In this document: positions 4,600 through 63,191 of the stretch, piece by piece
Layout: every line of letters begins with the position of its first letter
How positions within the stretch are numbered: the stretch's first letter is position 1
DNA from: Eledone cirrhosa
Taxonomy: Eukaryota
DNA: 64,000 bases
Direction: 5' to 3'
Assembly (NCBI GenBank): GCA_964016885.1
Contig: OZ024742.1
Location: 176,762,001 to 176,826,000 of the forward strand
Translations under genes and position numbers: made by a program
Notes under the pieces: generated by a model
Databases searched by the model: none
What the model saw: only the letters and a program-made list of their open reading frames with translations
Told to the model about the DNA's origin: nothing

Positions 4600-5277
4600 T
4601 ATCTCTCTTTCTCTCTCTCTATACATACATGTACACACACACATATATGTACTTAGGTGATTGCGTCACTCAGTGAAATGTATATTTTATGTGAACCTGG
4701 TGGTTTGGCATCTAATTAGGAGTATGCTATGCTAAACCTCTAAACACCTGATGCCGTATTCTCTAAATTGTCCAATATCTTCGACAGTAAAATAAAATCA
4801 TGTAGTGTAATATGGCAGACATACCAATTAGTAATTTATATGATCAATACCCGATTGATTTTTCCTTACAGTAGTTGCACCGCTTGTTAATTTTTTATTC
4901 AACAATAAACGAAGAATTCGATATTTGAATATCTTAGCTGAAAATAGAAAAAAATTGTAAATAATAAATAAATTCAAAAAATAGCTATAAATATAAATAA
5001 ATTTAAATTAAACGAAATAAAATATAATATATATCAAATAAAATGGTGTCTGGATGAAAAACTAGAAACATATTTGGCAATATCAATCGATTTAACTATT
5101 ACGTATAACTCGACATAACTGAAAGTCGCCGTTTGTATTTAGGCAGTAGACTGGATAGTGAGTTTATTGAGTTAGAATCGAACACTTGATGAAGCTAATG
5201 GATGTCTGACTTGTACATATTTGTATACATACAAACCTATATATACATATATATATATTTATACACGTCATATATGA

Positions 5278-12130: not shown

Positions 12131-15100
12131 TAATAATAATAATAATGAAATTATTGTGTAAAGTACTCAGGGGCACTACGACTCATCAAAGGTGCATGTA
12201 TAGTACATAGAATAATATACAAATGTCAGGAAAGTGAATAGTGTTTGAGTCATGATATACATGTGTGTATGTGTGTGGAGGCGGAACATTAGGTGTTGGC
12301 GAATCTCGGGAAGCATGGAGGTTTTAAAGGATGCAGTGTCTCGACAGCTAACAACTGATGCAAGTAGTTTTTTCCCTGCTTCAGCAACTCTGAGCGTGAA
12401 AAAATGTTTCAGAAATTCATCGGAACTGTGCTGTTTTCTGACTTTGTGGGCATGTTCACGTGTTTTAGACACATGGAAATCAAAAAGGTACTGAGGGTTG
12501 TTGTTGGCAAGATGGTTAACAATTTTGTGGGTGTTTACCAAGTCAGTTGCCGGGCGTCGGAGCTTCAATGTATCCATGGCCAGGGAAGCAAGGCGTTCAG
12601 AGTATGGTAGATACCTGATGGAGGGTATTCGCTTGGTTGCACATCTCTGAACAGTTTCCAGGCGGTCAATGTTCTGAGCAAGATAGGGGTTCCAGACTGG
12701 TGATACAAATTCTAAGTGTGGCCGCACCATTGCCATGTACAGCCTTAAATAGATAGCTGGAGAGCGGCTGACAAAGGTCTTGCTGAGTAATGCTAAGACA
12801 CCCTCAGCTCTCTTGACACTTTTAGAGACGTGCTTCGTCCAACGCAAATCGCTGCTGACCCTAATGCCCGCGTCACGTTACGAGAAAACTTCTTGATATT
12901 AGTGCTGTGGAGGGAGTATGTGGACGTTGGGTTTTTCTCCCAAAAGGCATGGTGGTGCACTTGTCCAGAGCTAGCTTGAATTGCCAGTCTGAGATCCATT
13001 GTTGCATTGTGTCTAGGTCAGACTGCAAGCAAGATCTATAGTGTTCAGGATCTGTCCTTTTTATCTCAAGGTACAGCTTGATGTCATCTGCGTACTTTAG
13101 TACTGTGGCATTCTTTAAGTTTGCATCTATGTCATTAATATATGTCACAAACAAAAGGGGGCCAAGAACAGAACCCTGTGGTACACCAGATAACATCTCA
13201 TATGGTGAGGAATGCTGTCCTAGAATCGTGACTACCTCTCTTCGACTGAGAATAAAGGACTTTAACAAGTTAAAAAAGATCATCCTTCACACCCATTGCA
13301 GAGAGTTTTGCCATAAGCCTTTTTTGTGGCACAGAATTGAAAGTTTTCGCAAAGTCAAGGTAAACAACATCCACCCATGAGCCGCCATCAGTGATCCAGG
13401 TGATGTCTTCAAGAAACTCGATAAGTTGATCACAGCATCTGGAGTTGGGGATAAATCTAAATTGCGAGGGCCGGATAAGACTGAGAGAGTTCCAGAAGTT
13501 CCAAAGTGTTTCTCTGACACAGGGTTCCATCAGTTTGGCAATGCAACTAGTAAGACTGACTGGACGATAGTTCACAGGTGATGTGCGGTCACCCTTTTTT
13601 GAACAGAGGAATGACACTGGCTGTTCTGGAGTAGCACCGTTGTTCAGACAGAATTGGAAGAAGCGTGATAGCTGGTGCAGAAGGTAGTACCCACCACGTT
13701 TAAGAAGCAGGTACGTAACACCATCAAGACCAGAAGAGGCATGGTTGCATTTATCTTTTAGGTGACGTCGCAGCATTGCAGGTGTAAATTCCATGGTTGT
13801 AATAGAGTCCGGTGTCATAGGTGGTGGAGACGGCATACTCTGGTCTTCAATAGTGAAAATGCCTGCATAGCATTCAACAATGAGCTTTGCACATTCTTGG
13901 GGTCGTCAGTAACCTGGCTTGTGTGGGGAATGTGAAGAGGACCAACTGGAGAGTGAGGCCTCTGCTTTGAGTGAACATACTTCCAGAACACCTTACTGTC
14001 AGGGCTGGTTGCTATGCACTGCTCAAATTGAAGCACTGCCTCTTTTGTCACCTGTTTGAGGTGGTTGGACGAATTATTTCGCCTCTTCCTATTGATGTCT
14101 GATTTGTGCAGTTTGTACTCACGTTCAGCATTGCGACGTTCTTTTCTGGCAAGACGGACTGCTGCAGTCTCCAAAATTGTACTTTTGGGATGTTTGTTCC
14201 GTTTACGTGGCACCGATGCTGCTCATGCTGTCCATATTGAGCTCAGGATGTTCTGGAGTACAGTATTGACATCTCCAGAGTCGTAGATCTCAAACCAGTT
14301 TGGACGTTGCAGCTCGGTGCAGTAACAGTTCCAGTCTGCTTTATTTCAGTCAAAGTGAGCAGTTTGGAGATGGTTGTGGTTCTTGTTGCTGCCCATGAGG
14401 GATAGATTGGCAATGATCATAGCATGATCAGAGTCACCTAAAGGTTCCTCAGCAGTATCACTAATGACCGTGTCAAGAGTAGTGGTGAAGAGTAGGTCCT
14501 AAATGTTGTCACCACTTGTTGGGAAGGTGACTACTTGGGACAATTCGAGTCCAGCACTAGCACAAGGAAGTCATTTGCACTTGGCGGCCAACGAAAGGTT
14601 TCCCAGTCAATCTCAGGGTGATTGAAGTCTCCTGCAATAAAAACATAAGTGGCTGTTTTCCTGGCAGCAGCTCTGAGGATATCACAAAGTTGAGTGTCCT
14701 GATGGTAATTTGAGGGACGGTAAATGACTCCAAGTAGCAGTGTTGACATGGTCATACGTATAACGCAGAAAAAAACTTCCTGCTGTGATTGGTTCAAATC
14801 AACACAAGGAATTGCAGACAAATTTGACCGAACGTAGAATATTACACCACCACCACCACGATTAATGCGGTCTTTACGAAACAGGTTGTAGCCAGTTATA
14901 CTGAAAACCCCATTACAGAGTAAGGGATGTGCCCAAGTTTCCATGGCTGTAATGAAGTCAGGGTTGATACTTTTGACGTAGGAGTCAAAAAGATGAATCG
15001 TATTGCATAGAATACCTGCATTCAAGGACAACAATTTGTAACTTGATTCCAGTATATGATTATGTTCAGGGGTGGCAGGTTGTGCTGATTTAGTTTCCCA

Positions 15101-16450
15101 GAGTTTTTTCAGTTTTTTTTATTGTCAGTTGTTGTGGGTACAGTGTTTTCAGACCAGCTGGTATCTCTTTTCGATGTTTCACCAGCCTTAACAAACTTCC
15201 ATATCTGCCCATCATCACGTAGGCTTAAGCTTTCATGTTCTGCCAAGCTGCGGTTTAAGGAAGCTGCAGCACGCAACTTTGGGCGGACATCAGGTTGAAG
15301 ACCAGGGCGTGTTCGGAAAGCAATCCGACATTCACGCCTAGCTTTATCAGAGGCTACAAGGTATGAACGTGCCTCAGTTGAGTTCGAAAAAGACAGTCTA
15401 GTTAGCCTGGGTTTCGGGCCTGGTCGGCCAAGGCGTACAGCACCCTTCGCGGAAGCACAGCCCAAGTATTTGGATGAACTGACAGCAAATGACTGAAGAT
15501 CAACTCTGTCTTCTGGTACACCAATGGCAATCACTTCGTGGTTTGCAGATTCAGTGGCATTCTCAATGAGTTTAGGTTCTACATGAGTTACACGGAGATT
15601 GTTTAACAAGGCACTCCGGTAAGATCCCTCATTGTCAGGTTCTACACAAACACTTGATTTTATTCCCGCTATTTCTCGGCTTAAAGCGGAAATCATTTGC
15701 CTATTTCCTCAAACTCCGTATTGACGGTCGATTTTTGTTGTTCTTCTTCTTCAGCAGGCATGGTAGGGGAAGACACAGTCGTCGGTTGTTGTTGTTGAAA
15801 AGTAACAGGGGAGGAAGACATGGGTTGTTGTTGTTGATGAAGTCCTTCAACGGGGGTAGTAGCATGAGCTACGGTCGTTGGTTTTTGCTGTTGTTCAGGA
15901 ACAATGGTAGAGGAAGACATGATCTTCGGGTTTTTTGTTGTTGTTCAGCAGCAATGGTAGAGGCAGACATACAAGAGGAAGACACGATCTTCGGTTTTTG
16001 TTGTTGTTGTTGTTGTTCAGGAACAATAGTAATGGAAGACTCGATCTTCAGTTTTTGTTGTTGTTGTTCAGCAGCAATGGTAGAAGCAGACATACAAGAG
16101 GAAGACACGATCTTCGGTTTTTGTTGTTGTTCAGTAGCAACAATTTGTTAGCTGGACCATCTCCCAGAGTCCATCCATCATAGCAATATGATGTCTCTTT
16201 TTTTGGCCTGGGATCTTCCGGAAGCATGTGGCGCATGTATAATTAAAATGTGTATGTGGGTTAGAAGCGAAGTCAATGTTCAGAAATATTTTACAAATGT
16301 ACGTAAGATTGGCCGGTATAGTGTCTCACACGAAATAGTGTGGTTGCTTTTCATTTGTGTGTATATGTGTGTGGTATGTATCTGTATATAGATTTGTGTG
16401 TATTTTGTTGTTTATATGTTTTGTGAAGTACTTACTGCGATCCCTAAGGG
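12131..16450 (-). mobile_element. Near full-length decayed CR1/L2-group non-LTR retrotransposon (ORF1 plus APE-RT ORF2); 5' boundary approximate
   Basis: APE motifs (SLNA, METW, RKDR, IYRP, GDFNHP) in 15034-14531; RT motifs YLDFAKTFNSV, GVPQGSVLGPLLF, KYADD and VRPHLEF..VWNP; ORF1-like RLGR region at 15696-15109; (ATT)n 3' tail at about 12131-12145; several frameshifts. Confidence 0.93.
15770..16145 (-). repeat. Imperfect minisatellite with poly-Gln-coding units at the ORF1 N-terminus of the LINE
   Basis: Repeated GATCTTCGGTTTTTGTTGTTGTTCAG..AATGGTAGAGG units of about 45-70 bp; two ~120-bp near-identical blocks. Confidence 0.8.
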
Positions 16451-17039
16451 ATGTAGTGATTTGTTTTTTGTTTTTGTTTTTTGTTTTTCCCTGTCCATGG
16501 TCACACGTGGTTTGTTGGCGAATATCAAATCAAATCAAATATGCTTTGTTAAAATAATTCTATGTTGAAGCTGGTACTAGTTGTTAGGAAACAGTCAAAG
16601 TATTTGTAATAATGAATATTGTAATCCATTTGACATGTGTTTAGAGGGCAATTTTTTGTGAAAATATTATATTTTGTTTGGTCAAGACGTGGTAAAGCGT
16701 ACTTCATTGTCGCCATTTTTTTCAGCAGACGCAATCTTCTTCAGCACCTAATTGTGTCTCCATATGTATCTACCCTCTGCTAGTGCTACTCTGCTTGAGC
16801 TCAGAACGTGTTCCACTGTCTGTCTACTCTGTGAGAGTGGGCACTTGCGGTTATCTGATTTGCCTTGCTCCATTTGACTAAATTCGTGTTATGGACAGAT
16901 CTGAAGAGACAACTAATTCTGAGAGGCCCCCATATGCCACAAATTATTCCAACTGAGACACTTCTGAAGTGCTTCTTCCAACGTCGTCATCTGGCCCCGT
17001 TGGCTCTGCCAAACTACCTTCCGGAGTCTTTATAAATAA

Positions 17040-20000
17040 TCCCAGCAATCCACGCCTCAAACATGCCTTTGTGTATGTTGGAAGAACTTGTCCGTCTAAC
17101 GTTCGGAGATCATCAAAGCAGGTAGGCCCCCTGACCTCATGTAGTAGCATGCGAAGATAGAAGCACTCGTGTTGGTTTGGGGGCACAGTATAAACTCTGC
17201 CCAAGCACTCGTTGAACTTGATGCCTGGATAACCTTCGACACACTGTCCTGTTTTTCTTCGCTTCCATGTATTTTTGTCCCAGGTATAGTAAGATGGGAC
17301 TTGTGGATATAGTAAGGTTTTAGCAAATTGATCTTCTTGACATAGTTTAAAGAAAGCGGTAAGAGTAGTATCCTTTGGTTCTTGTGCTAAGTGAGCAGCT
17401 GATACATTCGTAAAATATATTCTCTGACCGTTCTCCAGGTGCACTTGAAGTTTTTGAACAGCAGGATGCCGTTGATTTATAAAAAATACGAAAATCCGCC
17501 AGAGTTAATGTATCTTCAAATCCGCATTAGAGTTAATGTATCTTCCAGTTTTGTACTGGGTCACTTCATCTCGGCTGTTTTCCCGAAGTAATCCAAACAT
17601 AGCAGCATCAGAGCCTTTATTAATGTACTTACAAACAAATGTATTTCATAGATTTAATCGAATTACAGTATTCTACGTTTATGTGTGCATCAAAAATCTT
17701 TATAAGGAGTGGATTATATGGAACAACCCATCTGTTGTCGGCCTCATGTTTGCCAACCCTTGCTGTGAATCCACCATGTTTGGATCTTCTCCGGCGATTT
17801 AGTGGGTATCCATCATGACCAGTCTGAGTGTCCTTAAGGAACTGTCGGGGACATTTCTTTGAGCTTCTAGACTCGTCCTTAACACACGGTAGGTTGCTGT
17901 GAAATCCATGTCCACATGGGCCATGCACCATGAGTGCTTTAACTTTTTGGTAAAGGTCCCTGTCGATTGCCGGATCCGGAAACTCAGCATAAAGGACATT
18001 GTCAATTTCATCTGATCTAAGTTTTGTCTTTAACCAGATCAGAATGTTGGCATGTGGCAAGCCTCGTTTTTGCCACTCAATTGTAAGCATGTCACATTGT
18101 ACTGGGCCAAAGATTTCACCTGTTTTGATCAGTTCCATGAGCTTAATTAACTTAAGATGGAAAACTCTGGCAATAAGATCCTGCCTGGCTGCGGCCTTTT
18201 GACCTGAAAAGAGTTCTTTCTGAATCTCTTCCCATTTTGGGTTTGAAGTGAAAGTAATAAACAAATCTTGTTTACCGAAAAGGCGCACAAAAGTTAAAGC
18301 ATCTTGAAATGTTTCGAGAAAGAACCGAGGACTTCCTGTGAAAGATGAAGGAAGGATGCACAACAGTCCAATACTATCAGTATCTGCATCATTGTTCATT
18401 CCATCACGAAGGTGAATGTAAGTGTCACAGCGAAGTTGTTTCTGATTAAGTCGAATGAAGCCTAATCTCTCGGACTCCATTCTTGCGAACATGTCAACTG
18501 CCAATTGATTGAAGAGGTATTGTGATCGGTGCAGCTGGTTGAAGCAGTTGTCGCGGATCATGAACCGGAAACCGTAAAGATCCATGCACGTGACAATTTT
18601 CGTGGTATGCTCATCTTGTTTGTGGAATTAATTTGATGAATTCCGAAATGGTATCCATCCTCACCATAAACAAATATTAGCGGATACTGGAATGCGTCGT
18701 AAGATCGATGGCTTTCACTTATTCTGTTAAGGCTGTTGTCTCGTCGCTTGATAATAATGTCTCTCTGATTGTGCTCCTCTCCACTAATAACGATGGCTAC
18801 CTCATTACAAGTAAGTGCATTATACCGGCCCGCATACTCCCCAGATGGTCTCTCATCAGCGTAAATGACGATATCGTAATTTGGCGAAGGTTCTTCTTCT
18901 AAAGCACACTTGAAGCTTTGAATGTAGCTATTGTTAGAGTGAAGCATGTCTTGGAAATCAATCAAGAGTTCCAGTTTAGTGTCTGAAGTGTACGATTGCC
19001 GTAGATCTGTTTGCTGATGACAGTTAACAATAAAGTAAAGCAGTACAAATTGTGGCTCTTCAGTAGGCAACGGTTGCAGTGATCCAATGAGATGATACAG
19101 CTGGCCCTGTACTTTGAAAGTCGGCATAAATCCATCTTCCTTCAGACGTTTTGCACCGAAAGAGGTCATTTGAAACGCAATATTGTACTGTCGGATATGC
19201 TTCATAAAATCACGTGATTGTGAATGCTTACCTGTTAGAAGCATCTGGAGAGGTTGCGGTGGGCAAATTAACCTTACCGTTGGAGCAGCACATTCCAGTT
19301 GATCCCCGCCGAAACACTTTTTAGCTTTACAATGTTGGCAAGTATTTGACATGGCATATATTTGAATATCAGGATGGATTTGATAGTTTACATTAGGGCC
19401 ATAATTAACTGCTTATGGTACCATCGTGAGCGTGATGCCTTTGAAATACCCCGCGATAAAGCTCTACGTTGGGCGTTACCCTCCAGCCGAATAGCTCGAC
19501 TTGTTACAGTATCTACAGCTCGTGCCGTAGCAGTAGCTGAAGTATTTCTCAAATGCCGACTTTGATGTTCTTGCTCAGTCTCAATTGCTCTTGCTGCAAC
19601 ATAGGTCCCAATTGTTTGAATGGAAAGTCCCATACGATTGTTCTAAAATTAAACAAACCATCATCAACATCTCGTCAATTCAAGAATGCTGCGAGATTAT
19701 GCCCTTAATGTGAAAATGAACACTTAATATAGTGAAACAAGTTAAAACAACAAGTGTTTTTTTAACTTTGAAAGTGCAACAAAGAATAAACAAGAAACAA
19801 ACGCTCGTCAATCAAATGAATGTGATGTTTATATTGAAAAGTATGTTATATCCCTTTTTTATAAGGATTGTCAATAAATTTTCCCTTACATCAATTTTTC
19901 TACCAAACAGTTTGATATCGATTTTTTATTGCTGAACGTGGGTCGATTTGAAAAATGTTTGTGATGTAACAATCTTATCGACCTGTGGAACGTGCCCAGA

Positions 20001-21187: not shown

Positions 21188-21540
21188 CTTAATACATTAA
21201 CAGAGAAAGCTATTAGCGATACTGCGACCAAATTCCATCTCACTCAACAAACATTTGGAAATACCTAGGTATATTCCCAATTACACGTTTGGGGTGCTAA
21301 CTATATTGTATTATGTGGAGAGTCGGCTTTATTATTTTATATGAGACATAATTAAATAAATCTCACTTTCCATACAATCGTTTCGTTATAAGATTTCTAC
21401 AAGGTGGGAGTAAAAAGTCCAAGTTAAGTTGAAGCTTGCATATGATCAACAGATTTACGTGCAAGTGGGCTCTTATAACTCTTCAGTGGAATGCCAAAGC
21501 AATATCAATATAAAAAACTACATCGATATTAATATTCAAT

Positions 21541-21804: not shown

Positions 21805-21806
<2 letters not shown>

Positions 21807-22826
21807 GTTCAATCATCTGGCTGGATGATATACGTTGCTGACGATAGCTAATAAGCTTGAAAATAGTACACGTTCCTTTGTCAGTGTTGAATAAACGAGC
21901 AACGATGGTTGCTAGACACTACGGCTTAATACGGGATGTTTGTTTACAAACACACCGAGCATTATAATAACTGTTCGCTGAATCCATACGTACATTTATA
22001 TATGTGTGCATGTATGCATATATATATACATACTACTGTACGTCTGTATACATATATGTATGTACGTATACATACTTATATTTAAGTGACAGCCGTACTA
22101 GGAGTGGTAAACGAAATTTCGTTTCATTTTTTCCGTTTATCGTTTTCGTTGGACCCGGCCGAATAACCCACTCGATATGAAAATTAGGCTGCTCAGCCGT
22201 TAATATGCATAAGGAATGTATATACTTTCAGACGTTCAATCATCTGGCAGGAAGGTATACCTTGCTTACGAAGCTAATAAGCTTGAAACTAGTACAGCGT
22301 TCCTTTGTCAGTGTTGAACAAACGATCAACGATGGTTGCTAGACACTACGGCTTAATAAGGGATGTTTGTTTACAAACACACCGAGCATTATAATAAATG
22401 TTGGGTGAATCTATACGTACATATATATATGTGTGCATGTATGTATATATATATACATACTACTGTACGTCTGTATACATATATGTATGTACGTATACAT
22501 ACTTATATTTAAGTAACAGCCGTACTAAGAGTGGGAAATGAAATTACGTTTCATCTTTTTCGGTGCACCTGGCCGATTAACCCACTCGATATACAAATTA
22601 GTCTGCTCAGCCGTTAATATGCATAAGGAAAGTATATACTTTCAGACGTTCAATCATCTGGCAGGAAGGTATATGTTGCTGACGATAACTAATAAGCTTG
22701 AAACTAGTACAGCGTTCGTTTGTCAGTGTTGAACAAACGAGCAACGATGGTTGCTAGACACTACGACTTAATACGGGATGTTTGTTTACTAACACACCGA
22801 GCATTATAATAAATGTTCGGTGAATC
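21805..22826 (+). mobile_element. Tandem array (~2.4 units of ~420 bp), one type-I HHR per unit (family B; retrozyme-like)
   Basis: Unit starts at 21805, 22232 and 22646. HHR cores at 21838, 22265 and 22679; consensus cgttg CTGACGA t-agc-taataa-gct-t GAAAC-ta-GTA cagcg. No ORF. Confidence 0.8.
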
Positions 22827-25800
22827 TTCAGTGCATCCTTTATATTTAATGGCATAAAATAGATGTTTTGATGAGCAAGTGAAGTGATTTTTTGGAGTAA
22901 AATTTTGTTCTGATTTAAATGTATACGTGTTGCCTTCAATGAGGTGAGTGGAGGTTCCACAATTAGAGCGACCACATTTTTTGACACTTGGTTGAGGGTT
23001 TGTGGTAGGTAATTTGGCATTGGTGAGTAATGTTTTCAGTGATTTCGGTTGTCTTTTGCTTTTGATTATTGTGTGTGTTTCAAGGGCTTTTTTTCATTCT
23101 TGGGTTTTGTTTTAGTAGTGGGATGTTCTTGTGAATAGTGTTGTAAGCTTCCGCACTTCTTGTGTTGTGTGTTGAGATATATGATAGAATATTGGACGTA
23201 CCTTGAATTTGTTTCTGTTTTCGTAATTCATCAATGTCTATTGCTTTAGCCCTTTCTATTCCATTATTTATTAGTAATAGTGGGTACTCTCTTTCGAGTA
23301 GAATTTCCTTTAATTCTTGAAGTCTTTTATTTCGCGTTTCATAATTGGAGACAATTGCGCAAATTCTTCTTGCTAGGTTAAAAGGAATGTTCGTTTTCGT
23401 GTGCTCTGGATGGTTGGAGGTGAATAGCAGGTATTGTTTGGAATCTGTTGGTTTGTAGCGATATTTGTTTCTTTTTTTAAGATTAAGATGTCCAGAAATG
23501 GGAGTTGATCTTGGCTGTATTCCATTGTGAATTGGATGTGGTTATTGATGCCGTTTATTAAGTTTTTGAAATCCTTCAGTTGGTCGAGTGTGTGGGACCA
23601 AAGAATGAGACAATCATCCAAGTAGCGTTTCCAATTCTCTGATAAATATTTGTGGACGTTCAATCCGGATTTTGATTTGAACTCTTCATATACCTGGACT
23701 TCTAAGTATGCCATGACTAAGTTGGCATAAGTTGGAGCGGCTTTTGTACCCGTCGCAGTCCCCGATATTTGCTTATAAGTACTGCCATCAAAATCAAAAA
23801 AGTTGTTCTGTAAGATGAATTTTAATCCCTCGGGGATGAAGCTTTGTTCTATTCTGTCAGGTATCTCATTGGGATATTTCTCTAGCCAGAATCCTATTGC
23901 TTCTACTCCGTATTGGTGTGGGATCGTTGTGTAGAGATTCACTACATCGAAAGACACAATAATAGTGTCGTTGTTGACATGTTTGGGGAGGTGGTTTAAG
24001 AGGTCCAGATCGTCTCTTACAAGGCTTAGTATGTGTTTGAGAATTGGTTTTAGTAGTATGTCTATAAAGTTGCTCAGTCTGTGTGTTTCACATTGTGGGC
24101 CCGCTACAATTGGTCTTAATTTAAGGTCTGTGGGTATTGTGTGTTCACGCAGGCTGAGGTGGATTGTTTACAGGCATCGTTAATTATTTTACACTTGTGG
24201 ATCTTCGGAAGTCCGTAAAGGTTGCTGGTTTTGTATTCAAAATGTGTTAAATAATCGCGTTCCTTTTTATTTAGGTCTTCCTGGTATCGATAAATCAGTG
24301 TGTTTAATCTGGTCATTGTTTTTGATTGCTGGTAGTTTTTTACTCTTTCATAGTAATTAGTATTTTGTAAGAGAGAGAACATAGAATGTTTATATTTTTC
24401 AGCCATTCATAATGACAACAGTACTTCCCTTGACTGCTTCCTTAATTATAATGTACGTATTTTTTTTTAGTTCATGGATAATCTCCCATTCCCTTCGACT
24501 CGTGTTGGGTTTGGGTTTAGGTTGCGGTATTTCATGGTATGGGAAGGTAGCTATGTGGTCACAAAATTTGTCCAGAACTATGTTTCTACTTTTTGTTGGG
24601 TTGTAGCTGCTTTTATTCCGTACAATTGATTCGTCGTTATTCTCCTTGTCAAAGAATTCCTCTGTGAGACGTAATTTTCTACAGAAGTGTGAGATATCGT
24701 CATTTATCTCATTGGGGTTAGAGTATTGTGGTGTTGGTGTGAATTTCAGTCCTTTGGAGAGATTTTTACTTGTTGGGCTGAGAGGTTTGTATTTGAAAGG
24801 TTGATTATTTTCGGTTTTTCAAAATCGGTTTGTGCCACCGAGTGTCGTGAGTTCTGTAGCCTTGGTCTAAACAATGATTTTTCTGGAATGTTTTTTCAAT
24901 GGTATTATTATATCTAATGGTATTTCCCCTGTTGTTGTGTGGTCTTGTATAGAAGTTTCGGACGTATTGAGGTTCGGTTTGTTGATAGTCCGGGTTGTAG
25001 ATTTTCTTCCTTTGTGTGGGTTGTGATCTACGGTTTTGGAACAGGCTCTGTGTGGGCAGGGGTCTACGGTTTTCGAATAGGTTTTGTGTGGGTTGTGATC
25101 TGCGGATCGGGTCTTGCCTTGTGTTCGGGGATCTTCGGTTTTTGTTAGTAGGGTTATAGTTTTGTCTATGGTTTCTGGGATTATCGTTATAGTTTTGCTG
25201 GGGTGTGTTGGACGTTTTGTTACTTTTTTTGTTATTTGTTGTGCATGTGGTGTGTGAGTTTTAGTTTGTTTTAGAAATGGGTTAACTGTATGTTGTTCAT
25301 TTTTGAAGTCCATTTCGTAGTTGTTGAACCAGGTGGCGTTTTTTTCCCATCGCTGGAGGGATGATAGTTCTTCATCCTCACAGTTTTCCTTCCACAGTTT
25401 TAAGGTTTTTTCGTAGAGTAGGCTTTCAGAGTGCTTTGATATTTCTGTGTCCATCTGTTGGTCGAGTGACTTGAATTTTTCTTCGTTGGAGTTGGCTCTT
25501 AATCTCAACAGTTCTATTTCTATTTTAAATTTTTCTAACGCCATCTTTTCCCTAAGTCTTTGTTGGTTTTCTGGTTCATTTGGGATGGATTTTATTTGGA
25601 GTTTTTTGGGGAGGATGATTGGGGTATAGTTTAGCCACTTTTCATATATGTCTGCCTTGCCATTATTTTTTTAGGAAATTCCAAAGGGCGAATTTGAGGC
25701 CTGTGAGCTTTTGACTCAATATGTTGATTAGGGTGCTTTTCACTGAGTGGATATCTCGTAGATTGGGTTCTAACGGTTGTTCCAGCTTTTGGAGCATTGC

Positions 25801-31670: not shown

Positions 31671-32146
<476 letters not shown>

Positions 32147-32150
<4 letters not shown>

Positions 32151-32480
32151 GTTTCTACTTTTAGGCACAAGGCCAGCAGTTACCCAGTGCATTACTGGTG
32201 CATTATTTTATCGACCCCGTAAGGAAGAGAGGCAAAGTCAACCTCGGCGGTATTTGAACTCAGATCGTAAAGGGATATTATATATATATATATATATATA
32301 TAATTGTTTCTACTTTAGGCACAAGGCCAGCAATTACCCAGTGCATGACTGGTACTTTATTTTATCGACCCCGTAAGGATGAAAGGCAAAGTCAACCTCG
32401 GCGGGATTTGAACTCAGATCGTAAAGGGACGTAACTATGCTAGAAAGCATGGCGTCCGACACTCTACCGATACTGCCAAA
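32147..32480 (-). mobile_element. Two tandem SINE S1 copies (32147-32273 truncated; 32302-32480)
   Basis: Direct matches to S1, separated by (TA)n. Confidence 0.9.
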
Positions 32481-40246: not shown

Positions 40247-40360
<114 letters not shown>

Positions 40361-40391
40361 ATTTAAATGGATACAGTTCAGTAAAAGGAAT

Positions 40392-40512
40392 TTATTGACA
40401 CGTGTTTCAATAACAGTTGTATAACCTGAAAATAGCTGCTATCTACAAAGTACTAATTATGCAGACACTCAATATTTCAATGTTATTTTCAACTACCATT
40501 TCATCAGAATAA
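40392..40512 (-). ncRNA. Type-I HHR with 92-nt stem II (inverted pseudo-LTR copy, family C)
   Basis: Reverse complement of 43657-43777. Confidence 0.8.
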
Positions 40513-43154
40513 TATCATTGAGAACTTGTTTGTTTTTTATAGAGAATATTAAGAGGGAGGAGTGAAGTTGTTAGAAGAATAGTTAAGGGAGTGGATAGAA
40601 ATGTTTGATAGCAGTGGGTAATTAGATTCCCATCTGTTATTTCGTTAGTTGAGTTTGACATTTTTATAGAATATTCATTATTTGGCGTTGGTTGTATTGG
40701 TTATTTTTCTAAATCTATTGAAGGATTAGAGATAGTAAAGATATGCATGGTTGGTTTTGTGTTTGCACTTAATTCACATACAGCCTTAAATTTTTCTTTC
40801 AAGTGTACGTATCCGTTTGCCCACACATAAATATATGCGTATACATACTTATTTTTTTAAAAAGCACATCAATGATGAGGCATGCGAAATAGTGAAAAAT
40901 CTCGGGATCGAAGATAGGACAGGACCACTCTTACCGGCAGTACCCACCTTCAATCTTAAGGACCATAAGGTAAACTTTGATAATGACCCTAAAATTAGAC
41001 TAATCTGCCCCTCTAAATCAGATATAGGTAAAATAAGCAAATATATCTTAGATAGAATCATCCCCCAAATTAAGGCTAAGGTTAACATTAAACTCTTGAG
41101 GAAGACCCAAGAAGCAATAAGATGGTTTAATAGCATTAGCAATAAGAATAAATCTAAGTTTATCCAGTTTGATATCGATGAATATTACTCATCGATATCA
41201 CCTGAAACTCTGAATAGAGCCATTGAGTTTGCTAAGGATAACTCTGACCTTACAAACGAAGACATTACGATTATATTAGATGCTAGGAAAACTATAGTAC
41301 AATTTGAGAACAGTTATTGGGTTCGTAAAGATAGACCCTCCAACTTTGACATAACAATGGGCTCTAACGATTCGGCGGAAATAATTAATAATGTGGGGTT
41401 ATTTATCACCTTTAGACTCAAGAAAAAATTCAGTAATCTCCACGGTGGAATATACCGCGATGATGCTCTCCTCCTAGTTAAAAACCTAAATAACCCAAAA
41501 CTAGAAAAACTACGCAAATATATAAGAAAGGTACTACTTGAAATAGGACTAACTATAACATATGAATCACAACCTTAAAGTAGTTAACTTCATGGATGTC
41601 ACACTCAATTTAAACTCTGGTCTGATTAAACCGTTTCATAAATTGAATGAAAATCTCAAGTACGTGAATGTTGTGTCTAACCACCCCATCTCTATAATTA
41701 AATCTATCCCTAAAAATATTTCCCTTAGAATCTCGGGTCTATCTTCTTACATACAAGTATTTAAGGAACACGCCGAGTACTACGAAAACGCCCTTAGTAA
41801 AGCAGGCTACCTCAACAAAATAGAATATATAGATGAAAACAATCAAAACACCCGAAATAAATCCCACATAGGTAGAAATAATAACACAACACCAAACCAC
41901 ACTTACTACCATAATGTACATACCAATAAACCAACAAACAAAACTAATAGGAAGCGATGCAAAGAATACTTATGGTATAACCCTGAATACAATAGTTCCA
42001 TTAGTACACATTTACCAGTACTCTTCTTTAAAATAGTTAGGAAACATTTTCCTACATCACCCAAATACCACAAAATCCTAAACCCTACCACTATAAGATT
42101 GTCATACTCTACAGCGTTAAATCTTGAACAATACATAAAAAAGATTAATACTAGAAGGTGAAACGAAAACACTAAAAACTTAAGTACAAAGAGCACAAAA
42201 AACAGTAGACAATACACTACAGAACATAAATAAACCACACCTAAGTTCGTCCGCAATACTACTCCAGAGTGAACCTAACTACAAAACCAACGTACACACA
42301 ACTGTAACTGCACCTATCCTGACAATTTCCTGCTCGGCAATAACTGTCTTGAAAAAAATATCAGCTATAAGTGTACCATTGAATCCGGAGGCAACGAGTG
42401 GTATTACGTGGGATCAACGGCAACATCGTTTAAATCTCGATTATATAGGCATTCTTACTCAATAAAACACCAGAGCCAAAGAAATATAACAACTTTAGCA
42501 GAAAAAGCTTGGACGCTCAGAGATAGCGATCAAAGGTTTACCCGAAAATGGGAGAAATTAGCTAAACCCAAAGCTTTTCCAGAAGCCAACATTTCTACAA
42601 ATTATGTAATCTTGAGATTTATTACATAATCACACACAAGAAGAAATTGCTTAATAACAGAATTGAACGAACATTATTCTGCCGTCACCGAACTAAAACC
42701 CTTTTTTCCCACTACAAGCTGAATATTACATAAACGAGGGACATCCTCCCAACTATACAAATCTTCAATCTAGTTAGAAATATAAAAACAATCTCTTCTC
42801 AACATATATATGTACTATTAATAATCTTAAATTATCACACTAATAATGGATAAATATGCTGGTGAGAATAGGTGCGAATATGCTATGATGAATGTGTCTA
42901 AAAGCGACCATATGTATGTATATATGTGAAAATGTATACAAATAAGTAAATAAGTGGGTGAGTGTATATATATATATGTTTGATGTGTATAATTAAATGT
43001 ATGTGTATGCATGTATATGTGTATTTATATATATATATATATACACATGGACAAGAGTATGTATGTATATATGTGTGTGTCTATATGTGTGTATATGAAG
43101 ATAAGTAGAGTATGAAAGTGTATATACATGAATGCGTATGTATGTACATATATA

Positions 43155-43205
<51 letters not shown>

Positions 43206-43656
43206 ACAGGTATATATGTATGTAAGTATGAGCATGTAAGTATGTGTATGTGAGTGTATGAATTTGTAGAGTTGTACATATATGTATGTGTGTGAATGTG
43301 TATGTTTTTAAAAAAAATAAGTATATATACGCCTATATTTATGTGTGGGCGAACGGATACGTACACTGGAAAGAAAAATTTAAGTCTGTATGTGAATTAA
43401 GTGCAAACACAAAACCAACCATGCATATCTTTACTATCTCTAATCCTTCGATAGATTTAGAAAAATAACCAATACAACCAACGCCAAATAATGAATATTC
43501 TATAAAAATGTCAAACTCAACTAACAAAATAACAGATGGGAATCTAATTACCCACTGCTATCAAACATTTCTATCCACTCCCTTAACTATTCTTCTAACA
43601 ACTTCACTCCTCCCCCATAATATTCTCTATAAAAACCAAACAAGTTCTCAATGATA

Positions 43657-43777
43657 TTATTCTGATGAAATGGTAGTTGAAAATAACATTGAAATATTGA
43701 GTGTCTGCATAATTAATACTTTGTAGATAGCAGCTATTTTCAGGTTATATAACTGTTATTGAAACACGTGTCAATAA
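43657..43777 (+). ncRNA. Type-I HHR with 92-nt stem II (family C)
   Basis: ttatt CTGATGA [aatggtagttg...taactgttatt] GAAAC-acgt-GTC aataa; intact core. Confidence 0.82.
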
Positions 43778-43920
43778 ATTCCTTTTACTGAACTGTATCC
43801 ATTTAAATCCTTCTATTTTCTCCGGATTACTTTTGAAACTACAACTGGAAGCGTCGATCAAAACATACGTGAGCTGTCCATCTACTGTGTGTAATATTCA
43901 TATTACAACACTACGGATAA

Positions 43921-43990
<70 letters not shown>

Positions 43991-56628: not shown

Positions 56629-56662
<34 letters not shown>

Positions 56663-56897
56663 ATAATAGGATATGTGTTCCTTCACGCACAAGGCGCTAA
56701 GGGACGCATGTATTGTCCAACCAAATGCCAATGTGGTTCAATGGCAGGTTAATAAATTAACGAGCCAGAACATATATCTTTACTTCGGCCCTTGAAAAAA
56801 TTGATTCCACTTCATTCACTCTCATCTCGGGAACAGTTTTGGATAGCGCTATTTCGTAATTTAAATTCATGAATGTTATATTCTTCGAATGAAAAGA

Positions 56898-56980
56898 ACC
56901 TTCTGACGAGAATCTTTCTTTGCAACGAAGGCCGTATGGTCTCCGTTTATTTTTGGTATTCGAAACCGATCGGTAAAGGT
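56898..56980 (+). ncRNA. Type-I HHR with 52-nt stem II and perfect core
   Basis: acctt CTGACGA gaat-...aacg-aggcc-gtat-ggtct-cgtt...-attc GAAAC-cgatcg-GTA aaggt. Confidence 0.82.
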
Positions 56981-57047
56981 AACCATAGTAGGTAAAGTCA
57001 ATTTTTTTAAATTTACTTTGAAACTTTTTCATTATTTGCTAAACCTT

Positions 57048-57106
<59 letters not shown>

Positions 57107-58212: not shown

Positions 58213-58256
<44 letters not shown>

Positions 58257-58257
58257 A

Positions 58258-58446
58258 TAATTGTTTCTACTTTAGGCACAAGGCCAGCAATTACCCAGTG
58301 CATTACTGGTACTTTATTTTATCGACCCCGTAAGGATGAAAGGCAAAGTCAACCTCGGCGGGATTTGAACTCAGATCGTAAAGGGACGTAACTATGCTGG
58401 AAAGCATGGCGTCCGACCCTCTACCGATACTGCTAATCCACCGCCT
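58258..58446 (-). mobile_element. SINE S1, full length, close to consensus
   Basis: Match to S1; TATATATAGTAATAAT on both flanks is a possible TSD. Confidence 0.9.
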
Positions 58447-59344
58447 ATATATAGTAATAATGAGTTCTATATATATATATAGTAATAATAAATACAAGAA
58501 ACAAAATCCGAATACTATATATATATATAGTCAGTAACAAAACAAAGAATCATTGGATATAGAAAAAGGTTAAGCTTAATGCAAGAGAAGATTCGTATTA
58601 GATGTCTTATTTTATCGTTATAGAAATATTGTAGTATGTGCATTAATTCACGAGTTCTGTTCTTGTAGAAGTAGGCTGGTTGGTGGCGAGCTTTAAATTA
58701 AGATTCATGGTGTAGATATTTCTATTCTTCCTCTCCCAATAAAGCGGCGAATTAGTACAGTCTTTAAATAGCATCGGATTAAAATTATCCAGGTATTTAT
58801 TCCAGGTCACTGCGCTCTGAGTTCAAACCTACTGATATCAACATTGGTTTCCATTTTTTCCGAAATCGCTGTTTATTTACGTCAAATGATGAAACTTATT
58901 CTTGTTTTCTCTGGAAGAAATCGGATGTTTTCCGGCCTGGTTAAAGAGTGGATTTGTCTGTTTTAACATGCCCACGACACAGGGGTCTGAACTACGCCCT
59001 AAAAATCCAGTTTCAGTTGCTTGCCCTTTATGTTTTACTTCACTATGCCCACAGTCAATATTATGATATTCACACGGGTGGTGGATTGGTAGAATCTGTA
59101 GAACGTTGGCGAAGAGACTTTGCAACAATCAGATATGATTTCAAATCTCCCTGAGGTCAAGGTCGCATTTCATCCTACCACTCTCAATACAATAAAGTGC
59201 CAGTCAGGTAAGGAGGTCGATATAATCGACTTTCCAACCCCCTCCAATTGTTGGCCATGTGCTAAAATTAGAAACCAATATTATGATATTTCCGTCAGAA
59301 TCATTATTATTGACTAGTTATAGATAACACTTTTTTTTCTTTGG

Positions 59345-62596: not shown

Positions 62597-63191
62597 ATCG
62601 ATAAAATAAAGTACCAGTAATGCACTGTGTAATTGCTGGCCTTGTGCCTAACGTAGAAACAATTAATTTCCTCTAATCATGAATAAAATAATTGTTTCTA
62701 CTTTTGGCGCAAGGCCAGCAATTATCCCAATGTATTACTGGTACTTTAATTCCTCGACCCCCATAAGGATGAAAGGCAAAGTTAACCTCGGCGGGATTTG
62801 AACTCAGATCAAGAATAAAATAATTGTTTCTACTTTAGGCACAAGGCCAGCAAATAACCAGTGCATTACTGGTACTTTATTTTATCGACCCCGCAAGGAC
62901 GAAAGGCAAAGACAACATCGGCGGGATTTGAACTCAGATCGTAAAGGGACGTAACTATGCTGGAAAGCATCGCGTCCGACCCTCTATAGACACTTAAAAT
63001 AAGTGTTTCTACTTTTGGCACCAGGCCAGCAATTATCCGAGTGCATTATTGGTACTTTATTCTATCGACCCCGTAAGGATGAAAGGCAAAGTTAACCTCG
63101 GCGGGATTTGAAATCAGATCATAAAGGGAGGTAACTCTATGCTTCAAAGCATGGCGTCCGACCCTCTACCGATACTGCCAATCCACCGCCC
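62597..63191 (-). mobile_element. Cluster of SINE S1 copies: one + fragment (62597-62663) and three head-to-tail - copies (62689-62811, 62821-62990, 63001-63191)
   Basis: Direct sequence matches; truncation decreases along the cluster. Confidence 0.88.

Follow-up and report, generated by a model that had tools for sequence, protein, structure and literature searches.

A truncated, two-armed retrozyme copy with a long-stem-II hammerhead in Eledone cirrhosa, and the Penelope-like insertion footprint of its repeat family

The hammerhead and the insertion that carries it

The window, by which we mean the whole 64,000-nt stretch of the Eledone cirrhosa assembly analysed here (contig OZ024742.1, positions 176,762,001 to 176,826,000), contains a type I hammerhead at 56898..56980 on the plus strand. 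The CUGANGA core (CUGACGA, 56903-56909), the GAAA at 56962-56965 and an NUH site (GUA, with a predicted cut after 56975) lie around three helices, namely an open 5-bp stem I (56898-56902/56976-56980 of the window sequence), a 52-nt stem II (56910..56961, plus strand) and a palindromic stem III (56965-56974), which would form 3 bp and a 4-nt loop in the monomer and 10 bp in the dimer. Stem II comprises a basal helix (56910-56916/56955-56961), of 7 bp in the family to which this copy belongs and interrupted in the copy itself, an internal loop and an apical hairpin (56924-56947). The 5' strand of the internal loop (56917..56924, plus strand), an 8-mer unchanged in 75 of 77 family loci, is the predicted partner of a purine-rich leader 5' of stem I (56890..56897, plus strand), the two forming the strands of a predicted pseudoknot. 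The parts listed in an initial annotation (5-bp stem I, core, 52-nt stem II, palindromic stem III and GUA) were all borne out, as were the (TA)n tracts on both sides and the statement that no reverse transcriptase lies nearby, no ORF of at least 150 aa being found within 4 kb of the hammerhead. The motif exceeds chance expectation: a strict hammerhead descriptor gave no match in 40 Markov-3 control windows, where loose matches averaged 0.125. The 83-mer folded no better than its shuffles (z -0.33) and the signal for the circular unit was weak (z -3.0); in the family unit the hammerhead is not the predicted minimum-energy fold, being 2.7-6.8 kcal/mol costlier. No Rfam hammerhead model matched, either at gathering score or when E values of up to 10 were allowed; the long stem II is the probable reason.

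Aligned with the 485-nt family unit (numbered M1-485 after a reference copy at locus L034), the segment that had been suggested to be a solo pseudo-LTR or a monomer resolves into two opposed arms. The left arm (56658..56777, minus strand) is M278-397 reversed and is 100% identical to the young family unit; it is the 'tail' between two priming sites, A and B, and ends at B. The right arm (56775..57057, plus strand) is M1-283, ends at site A and differs from the young unit at 8 positions (97.2% identity). According to the arm alignment the two meet head to head with a 3-nt overlap (TAT, 56775..56777), and they are bordered by (TA)n tracts, the insertion target, at 56630..56659 and at 57051..57103, the latter overlapping the AT-rich end of site A. 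Two hairpins are predicted in the tail on the minus strand: hairpin B, just inside site B (56677..56706), from covariation across 14 sister tails, and the bulged hairpin A, which starts at site A (56736..56771), from the abundance of its motif. The window copy is, then, a two-armed, inverted, 5'-truncated insertion in (TA)n from which about 90 nt of the unit are missing.

The initial annotation had also named this hammerhead the best local candidate for a still-active ribozyme, an expectation that was not sustained. The window copy, alone among 77 loci, carries a G-to-T change at M183 (G183T; 56957..56957, plus strand), which disrupts the fifth pair of basal stem II and of which there are 9 copies genome-wide, against 1,206 exact copies of a 24-nt half-core of the ribozyme. 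With G183T the predicted cost of the hammerhead fold rises from 2.7 to 4.7 kcal/mol in the 83-mer and from 5.9 to 11.7 kcal/mol in a 121-mer, and this rare change makes the copy a poor candidate for the active form. As it is truncated and two-armed and has a single ribozyme, release of unit-length RNA from it is impossible. On these fold predictions the window copy is likely to be a dead end with a weakened ribozyme, and the young arrays of the family are the better candidates for activity. The hammerhead itself is real. It is a variant ribozyme carried by a decayed copy of an element whose kind is already known, and this single copy is of little weight by itself.

The 485-nt family and the structure of its ribozyme

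Within a genome of 3.0 Gb that is rich in (TA)n, the hammerhead is not isolated, nor is its segment unique, as had been supposed: the 391-bp segment has at least 199 genome matches and the 24-nt half-core has 1,206 exact genome copies, compared with 0 for the control. The family unit is 485 nt long and non-coding, has a GC content of about 41% and forms head-to-tail arrays in which an arm can reach about 10 units, with an identity of 99-100% in a young subfamily and about 89% in older ones; by extrapolation the family numbers roughly 550 loci. A complete type I hammerhead occurs in consecutive units (180 units, 77 loci). The family thereby has the repeats, small size, lack of coding capacity and GC content below 50% expected of a non-LTR retrozyme, and with its 485-nt non-coding unit, one hammerhead per unit and head-to-tail arrangement it supports the retrozyme reading offered earlier.

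Conservation of the core in homologous copies had been proposed as a check, and the core indeed shows 3 changes in 930 cells (0.3%). Change rates in the family are 0.2-0.4% for stems I and III and 1.6% for stem II, compared with 5-13% in the parts of the unit outside ribozyme and tail. Among 12 aligned sister sequences, 12 of 20 helix pairs have both sides changed and all four helices hold; pairing stands at 92.9%, slid controls reach 25-52%, and none of 500 shuffles was as high, a count that is not a probability because the rows are related. Judged from these sequence comparisons, the family ribozyme is under selection on RNA structure.

The motif of tail hairpin A is found at 4,724 places genome-wide, as opposed to 2 for the control, and these belong to several sister families with units of about 460-520 nt and the same long stem II. 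The statement that the hammerhead is unrelated to other hammerhead families is correct by sequence inside the window, but sister long-stem-II families abound genome-wide. The alignment of 14 sister tails shows two hairpins, a bulged one that begins at site A and a covarying one that stops short of site B; in the latter, hairpin B, 9 of 14 predicted pairs have both sides changed, while hairpin A is invariant in this alignment solely because its motif selected the rows. The twin-hairpin tail may plausibly serve as a docking site. Arrays with units of 467/468 nt were considered as relatives of the 485-nt unit and set aside as unrelated in sequence, and ARAGORN returned nothing relevant.

In stem II, the 5' strand of the internal loop is complementary to the purine leader 5' of stem I, and leader and loop vary in concert from one sequence to another (GGAAAA/UUUUCC, GAGAAG/CUUCUC, GAGAAA/UUUCUC). 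Across the sister families the mean predicted pairing is -6.0 kcal/mol for cognate and -3.7 kcal/mol for non-cognate combinations (permutation p 0.0 in 20,000 trials, a test that overstates independence because the sister sequences represent about four related lineages only), and 0 of 300 loop shuffles reached the cognate pairing. Both sides are changed in 3 of 6 aligned leader-loop pairs, which is not above shuffles (236/500). The pairing is weakest in the window's 485-nt family (-2.9 kcal/mol), where the loop of sister L176 would be a better partner for the leader (-7.4 kcal/mol), and in a plain fold it makes a hairpin that buries the core. Taking these predictions together, we lean towards a leader-loop pseudoknot that braces stems I and II. 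The 52-nt stem II would then amount to a normal helix II of 7 bp with its loop opened out to form an internal loop, and the 5' strand of this internal loop would pair with the purine leader to form the brace. Stem I-stem II pseudoknots are known and are needed for fast cleavage, and the part of PMC3088659 available to us reports a Watson-Crick contact between the flank of one stem and the loop of the other in about 40% of hammerhead representatives (PMC3088659). The predicted contact is of this type; it differs from what that part describes in that the partner would be the internal loop of an extended stem II, in a repeat-borne type I hammerhead. So long a stem II suggests a specific and mutable contact, which may address the question, posed in PMC7229834, of how a hammerhead is prevented from cutting its circle open again.

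The insertion footprint and candidate helper elements

Since similarity ranking biases the choice of loci, the arm ends were counted in a positional sample consisting of every insertion, 46 in number, to which the first 100 matches of the 24-mer on contig C1 belong (its first 168 Mb), a sample that is conditioned on the exact 24-mer and in which tail-only copies are missing. Of 71 arm ends in these 46 loci, 65 fall at site A or site B, two windows that make up 7% of the unit. Site A (M281-285) accounts for 38 of them and site B (M375-397) for 27, of which 24 are at 389-397; the other 6 arm ends lie elsewhere. The sites are about 110 nt apart (tail about 106-114 nt). Every one of the 65 regular ends adjoins (TA)n, against a background of 16%. 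There are 21 two-armed insertions, 4 of them with one irregular end; those with both ends regular combine A with B in 16 cases, A with A in one and B with B in none (p 1.3e-4). The arms overlap by 1-9 nt at 11 of the 21 junctions, are bluntly joined at 6 and enclose 4-19 extra nt at 4. The 5' ends of the 71 arms are scattered, and a pile-up at M1 and M278 among similarity-ranked loci, which faded in the positional sample, was attributed to query bias and TA microhomology.

This is the pattern shown by Penelope-like elements (PLEs). For one such element, the purified protein was found to nick AT-rich DNA on both strands and to initiate reverse transcription from two internal positions, which bound the genomic tail (PMC11167929); tails, (TA)n targeting and arms that are inverted and truncated count as hallmarks of PLEs (PMC8557442). 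The family shows two fixed 3' ends bounding a tail, an inverted 5'-truncated arm and a microsatellite target; as its fixed ends, A/B pairing and (TA)n target match those of PLEs, the retrozyme carries a PLE footprint despite having no ORF of its own. It is very probably a PLE-mobilised retrozyme. The same distribution bears on a DNA-level satellite that would have spread through recombination or as extrachromosomal DNA circles and gained its inversions by fold-back repair, a proposal that would suit tandem arrays of near-identical units and for which birth by unequal crossover is discussed in bioRxiv 10.64898/2026.07.22.740005. The family has 3' ends that are fixed and specific to a strand, 5' ends that vary, A/B complementarity and copies at (TA)n sites by the hundred, all of them signs of target-primed reverse transcription, and a satellite would leave the selection on RNA structure unexplained; the proposal is already largely refuted by the arm-end distribution, and we regard it as barely credible.

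No PLE-type ORF was found at 30 tail-motif loci or at the window copy, no terminal repeat joined to an RT + GIY-YIG ORF in the 46 positional and 30 tail-motif loci, and no LTR layout in the sampled loci, any target-site duplication being unreadable inside (TA)n. These counts weigh against the initial annotation's suggestion of a solo pseudo-LTR, according to which the window segment would be the 5'-truncated end of an unsampled autonomous PLE family. Short two-armed PLE insertions are alike in outline, retrozymes derive from pseudo-LTRs according to bioRxiv 10.64898/2026.07.22.740005, and the places examined amount to about 130 of the 4,724 with the tail motif. The copy is nevertheless 97-100% identical to a young 485-nt array unit, and the longer sampled arms always enter the previous unit and never continue 5' into an RT ORF, so that we judge this origin highly improbable. 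The check on copy number and PLE linkage that had been recommended gave at least 199 matches to the 391-bp segment and no sampled arm joined to an RT ORF.

Possible sources of the enzyme for this PLE-mobilised retrozyme are present in the genome. One young PLE family has intact ORFs of 409 aa and 775 aa, the latter encoding RT + GIY-YIG with the motifs DKG and CX4CxxC, and is Neptune-like; it bears a minimal hammerhead with a retrozyme-like stem I and palindromic stem III type, and its site A lies 79 nt after the cut (80 in the retrozyme), with a tail of 63 nt. The other has one intact 785-aa ORF with the motifs RWK, DKT and CxCX5C, which fit the description of the Hydra type in PMC8557442; stem II of its hammerhead measures 92 nt and its tail about 110 nt. 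A third family, also of Hydra type, is mostly broken and has a tail near 97 nt; the many TGA stops met in the search for its ORF were taken as an artefact of a frameshifted query. An autonomous element with the 485-nt family's own tail sequence was absent from 76 PLE-centred loci, and identification of a helper by sequence match was abandoned, as none of the three PLE families shares the tail sequence. Should the length of the tail mirror the distance between the two active sites, the best match would be the 785-aa family. This Hydra-clade family (L193-L198) resembles the retrozyme in its (TA)n target, two arms, long stem II and ~110-nt tail, and differs in lacking detectable similarity of ribozyme or tail and in a site A about 45 nt after the cut rather than 80; in ribozyme and cut-to-A distance the 775-aa family is the closer. 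The 785-aa Hydra-type family is our best guess as helper, though a tentative one that we put at somewhat below even chances.

Several observations on these elements were made along the way. At L084 (2233-2855) about 260 nt of a Hydra-type PLE 3' end are joined to a retrozyme arm at M257 by template switch or deletion; as a single case that goes against the A/B rule it was left uncounted and rejected as evidence of linkage. In both young families (L143-L150 and L193-L198) a (TA)n run stands at a constant place in the 3' UTR, about 210 and 270 nt after the stop, so that both bring along a target sequence of their own. The hammerhead of the 775-aa family at L146:6906-6943 has U3/A8 instead of C3-G8, a reciprocal core change; its stem II has 4 bp and its palindromic stem III is 6 nt long. 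The window itself contains, at 40355-43925, a decayed Hydra-type PLE that lies with two arms in (TA)n and has a tail of about 108 nt, frameshifted ORF pieces at 40790-42161 (plus strand) and hammerheads with a 92-nt stem II at 43657-43777 (plus strand) and 40392-40512 (minus strand); its young sister has many intact 785-aa ORFs.

The template and the relation to known elements

The 71 arms pass the cut site (M195-207 region) 107 times, and 33 are longer than one unit, although copying of a cut linear monomer would have to end after 80 nt if started at A and after 190 nt if started at B. Long arms could still arise from linear cut monomers if the reverse transcriptase, on reaching the 5' end of a monomer, jumped to a 3' end, be it of that monomer or of a different one. 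Such end-to-end template jumping is known for some non-LTR reverse transcriptases (R2), and a few 5' ends do lie near the cut (4 of 71 within M195-207; L042 and L047 at M200). These 4 are not enriched over a uniform expectation of about 2 and are accounted for by TA microhomology at M200; the joint is free of indels, and jumps between molecules should mix subfamilies inside arrays, whereas no mixing was seen. We consider template jumping very unlikely.

The sequence variants within loci speak to whether both arms copy one RNA. In 28 two-armed loci the distance between the arms is 0-3.1%, in each below the median distance to other loci; no other locus is closer than the partner arm in 20 of the 28, and another is closer in 8. 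Of the alleles private to one locus, as judged against 78 sampled loci out of roughly 550, fifteen are fixed in all units that cover them, several of these across both arms (5 of 5 at L103), and 201 are not so fixed. Divergence within arrays is 0-1% in 14 arrays, the family as a whole spanning about 11%, and long arrays can be highly uniform (8 units within 0.1% at L083 and 10 units within 0.04% at L031). Variants within arrays are common to several loci in 29 of 292 cases, mostly at homopolymers, arm ends or two-insertion loci. Shared haplotypes and run-through arms favour, and do not prove, a circular template, which accounts for these observations in a simple way and to which we give moderate preference; the haplotypes could also stem from a homogeneous source array or gene conversion.

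The strongest competitor keeps the two-site priming by a PLE and replaces the circle by a long uncut multimeric transcript of a source array, the hammerhead being slow or switched off by the leader-loop hairpin and the arrays being uniform by way of young or homogenised sources. It agrees with the disfavoured hammerhead fold in silico, with the 64 of 71 arms that are shorter than two units, and with the lack of any junction scar or indel at the cut site in 77 loci; purified PLE, moreover, used mainly uncut RNA and transposed in vitro without need for cleavage (PMC11167929). On the other hand, 5'-truncated copying can only shorten arrays, and yet lineages about 11% apart hold long uniform arrays; within-array variants are rarely common to loci (the 29 of 292 above), and the strong conservation of the core would be left to explain. 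We rate an uncut template as unlikely, though clearly ahead of jumping between monomers. Scars of RNA editing were likewise absent, with no A>G excess on the ribozyme strand among four change classes; shared alleles comprised 11 A>G and 29 T>C (p 0.08), in the direction opposite to editing (polarity by majority allele, excluding 3 multi-insertion loci and ambiguous end columns). Sequencing run X1, whose kind is not on record, contains a unit with the head-to-tail joint, from contigs that cannot tell a circle from an array; X1 gives no cover on a 3.85-kb non-tandem stretch of the window, of which run X2 covers 24 of 30 bins, and it was set aside as evidence.

On balance we favour, with reservations, a reading of the window segment as a truncated two-armed copy of a non-LTR retrozyme, made by a PLE enzyme from two fixed start sites on what is probably circular RNA. 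By analogy with known retrozymes, arrays would be transcribed and cut at each GUA, and the unit-length RNA ligated into circles. A PLE-like RT/GIY-YIG dimer may then bind the twin-hairpin tail and nick both strands of a (TA)n tract, one cDNA being primed at site A (80 nt past the cut) and the other at site B (about 110 nt further). Both cDNAs would copy one RNA species, passing through the ribozyme site for up to 10 turns before stopping at variable points, and would be joined head to head, with single-armed copies resulting when one cDNA is lost or very short. It is a good deal less likely, though worth stating, that the whole superfamily (about 4,700 tail motifs) combines a new stem II variant and a switch between brace and protective hairpin with a Hydra-type dimer seated on a 110-nt tail that copies one circle from both DNA ends. 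If that were true, leader pairing would brace the growing transcript and flip to a core-burying hairpin that protects the finished circle, and every insertion would record a rolling-circle, double-primed retrotransposition.

Compared with metazoan non-LTR retrozymes as described in the parts of PMC7229834 and bioRxiv 10.64898/2026.07.22.740005 available to us, the family agrees in having short tandem units that are non-coding and bear a single type I hammerhead apiece, in a GC content below 50%, in its dispersed monomers and multimers and in its coexistence with PLEs. The unit of 485 nt compares with 150-450 nt in PMC7229834 and 51-972 nt in bioRxiv 10.64898/2026.07.22.740005. A 52-nt stem II with internal loop and apical hairpin has no counterpart in those parts, and neither two fixed ends nor inverted two-armed arrays, both features of the 485-nt family, are described there. 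Expression and circles have been demonstrated for published retrozymes, and mobilisation by PLEs has been proposed from co-occurrence and pseudo-LTR phylogeny (PMC7229834; bioRxiv 10.64898/2026.07.22.740005, parts available); among Xenopus retrozyme dimers only 1 of 9 cleaved in vitro (bioRxiv 10.64898/2026.07.22.740005, same part). With PLEs (Poseidon PAc, PMC11167929; PMC8557442, as far as these extracts go) the family has in common two RT start sites bounding a tail, priming on both DNA strands, an inverted 5'-truncated arm, an AT-rich or (TA)n target and a hammerhead upstream of the start sites; unlike them it has no ORF, its tail is about 106-114 nt rather than 30-40 nt, and its arms may be multi-unit arrays. 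Our literature search found no paper on cephalopod retrozymes or on two-armed, two-site retrozyme arrays. The return of retrozymes to DNA by PLE enzymes and a circular template is, in the literature available to us in part, proposed and not shown; the family offers countable genomic footprints of that proposed route, and the young intact PLE proteins of this genome make the pairing of enzyme and RNA testable in the published in vitro assay.

Other elements of the window and of the sampled loci are recorded here. A 427-bp repeat at 21805-22827 (2.4 copies, with a hammerhead-like core on the plus strand) resembles 468-nt arrays in L229/L230 and is likely to be another retrozyme; it adjoins a broken Neptune-like PLE at about 22830-25670 (minus strand). 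A type I hammerhead with a 95-nt stem II lies at 21368-21491 (minus strand); in L106, sequence related to it adjoins one of the family's arms directly at a join. Two-armed or tandem retrozymes of 465, about 470 and 459 nt stand in (TA)n beside unrelated elements at L143:7488-8984, L088:3646-4630 and L148:7000-7920, respectively. The window further contains a broken LINE with endonuclease and RT domains (12176-15118, minus strand) and a Helitron remnant (Helitron_like_N; 16944-19412, minus strand). Finally, an abundant short repeat, which also starts at (TA)n, is present at 58254-58450, 32119-32429 and 62676-63168; near its end it has a 9-nt motif in common with the reversed retrozyme tail, and it may share the mobilisation route.
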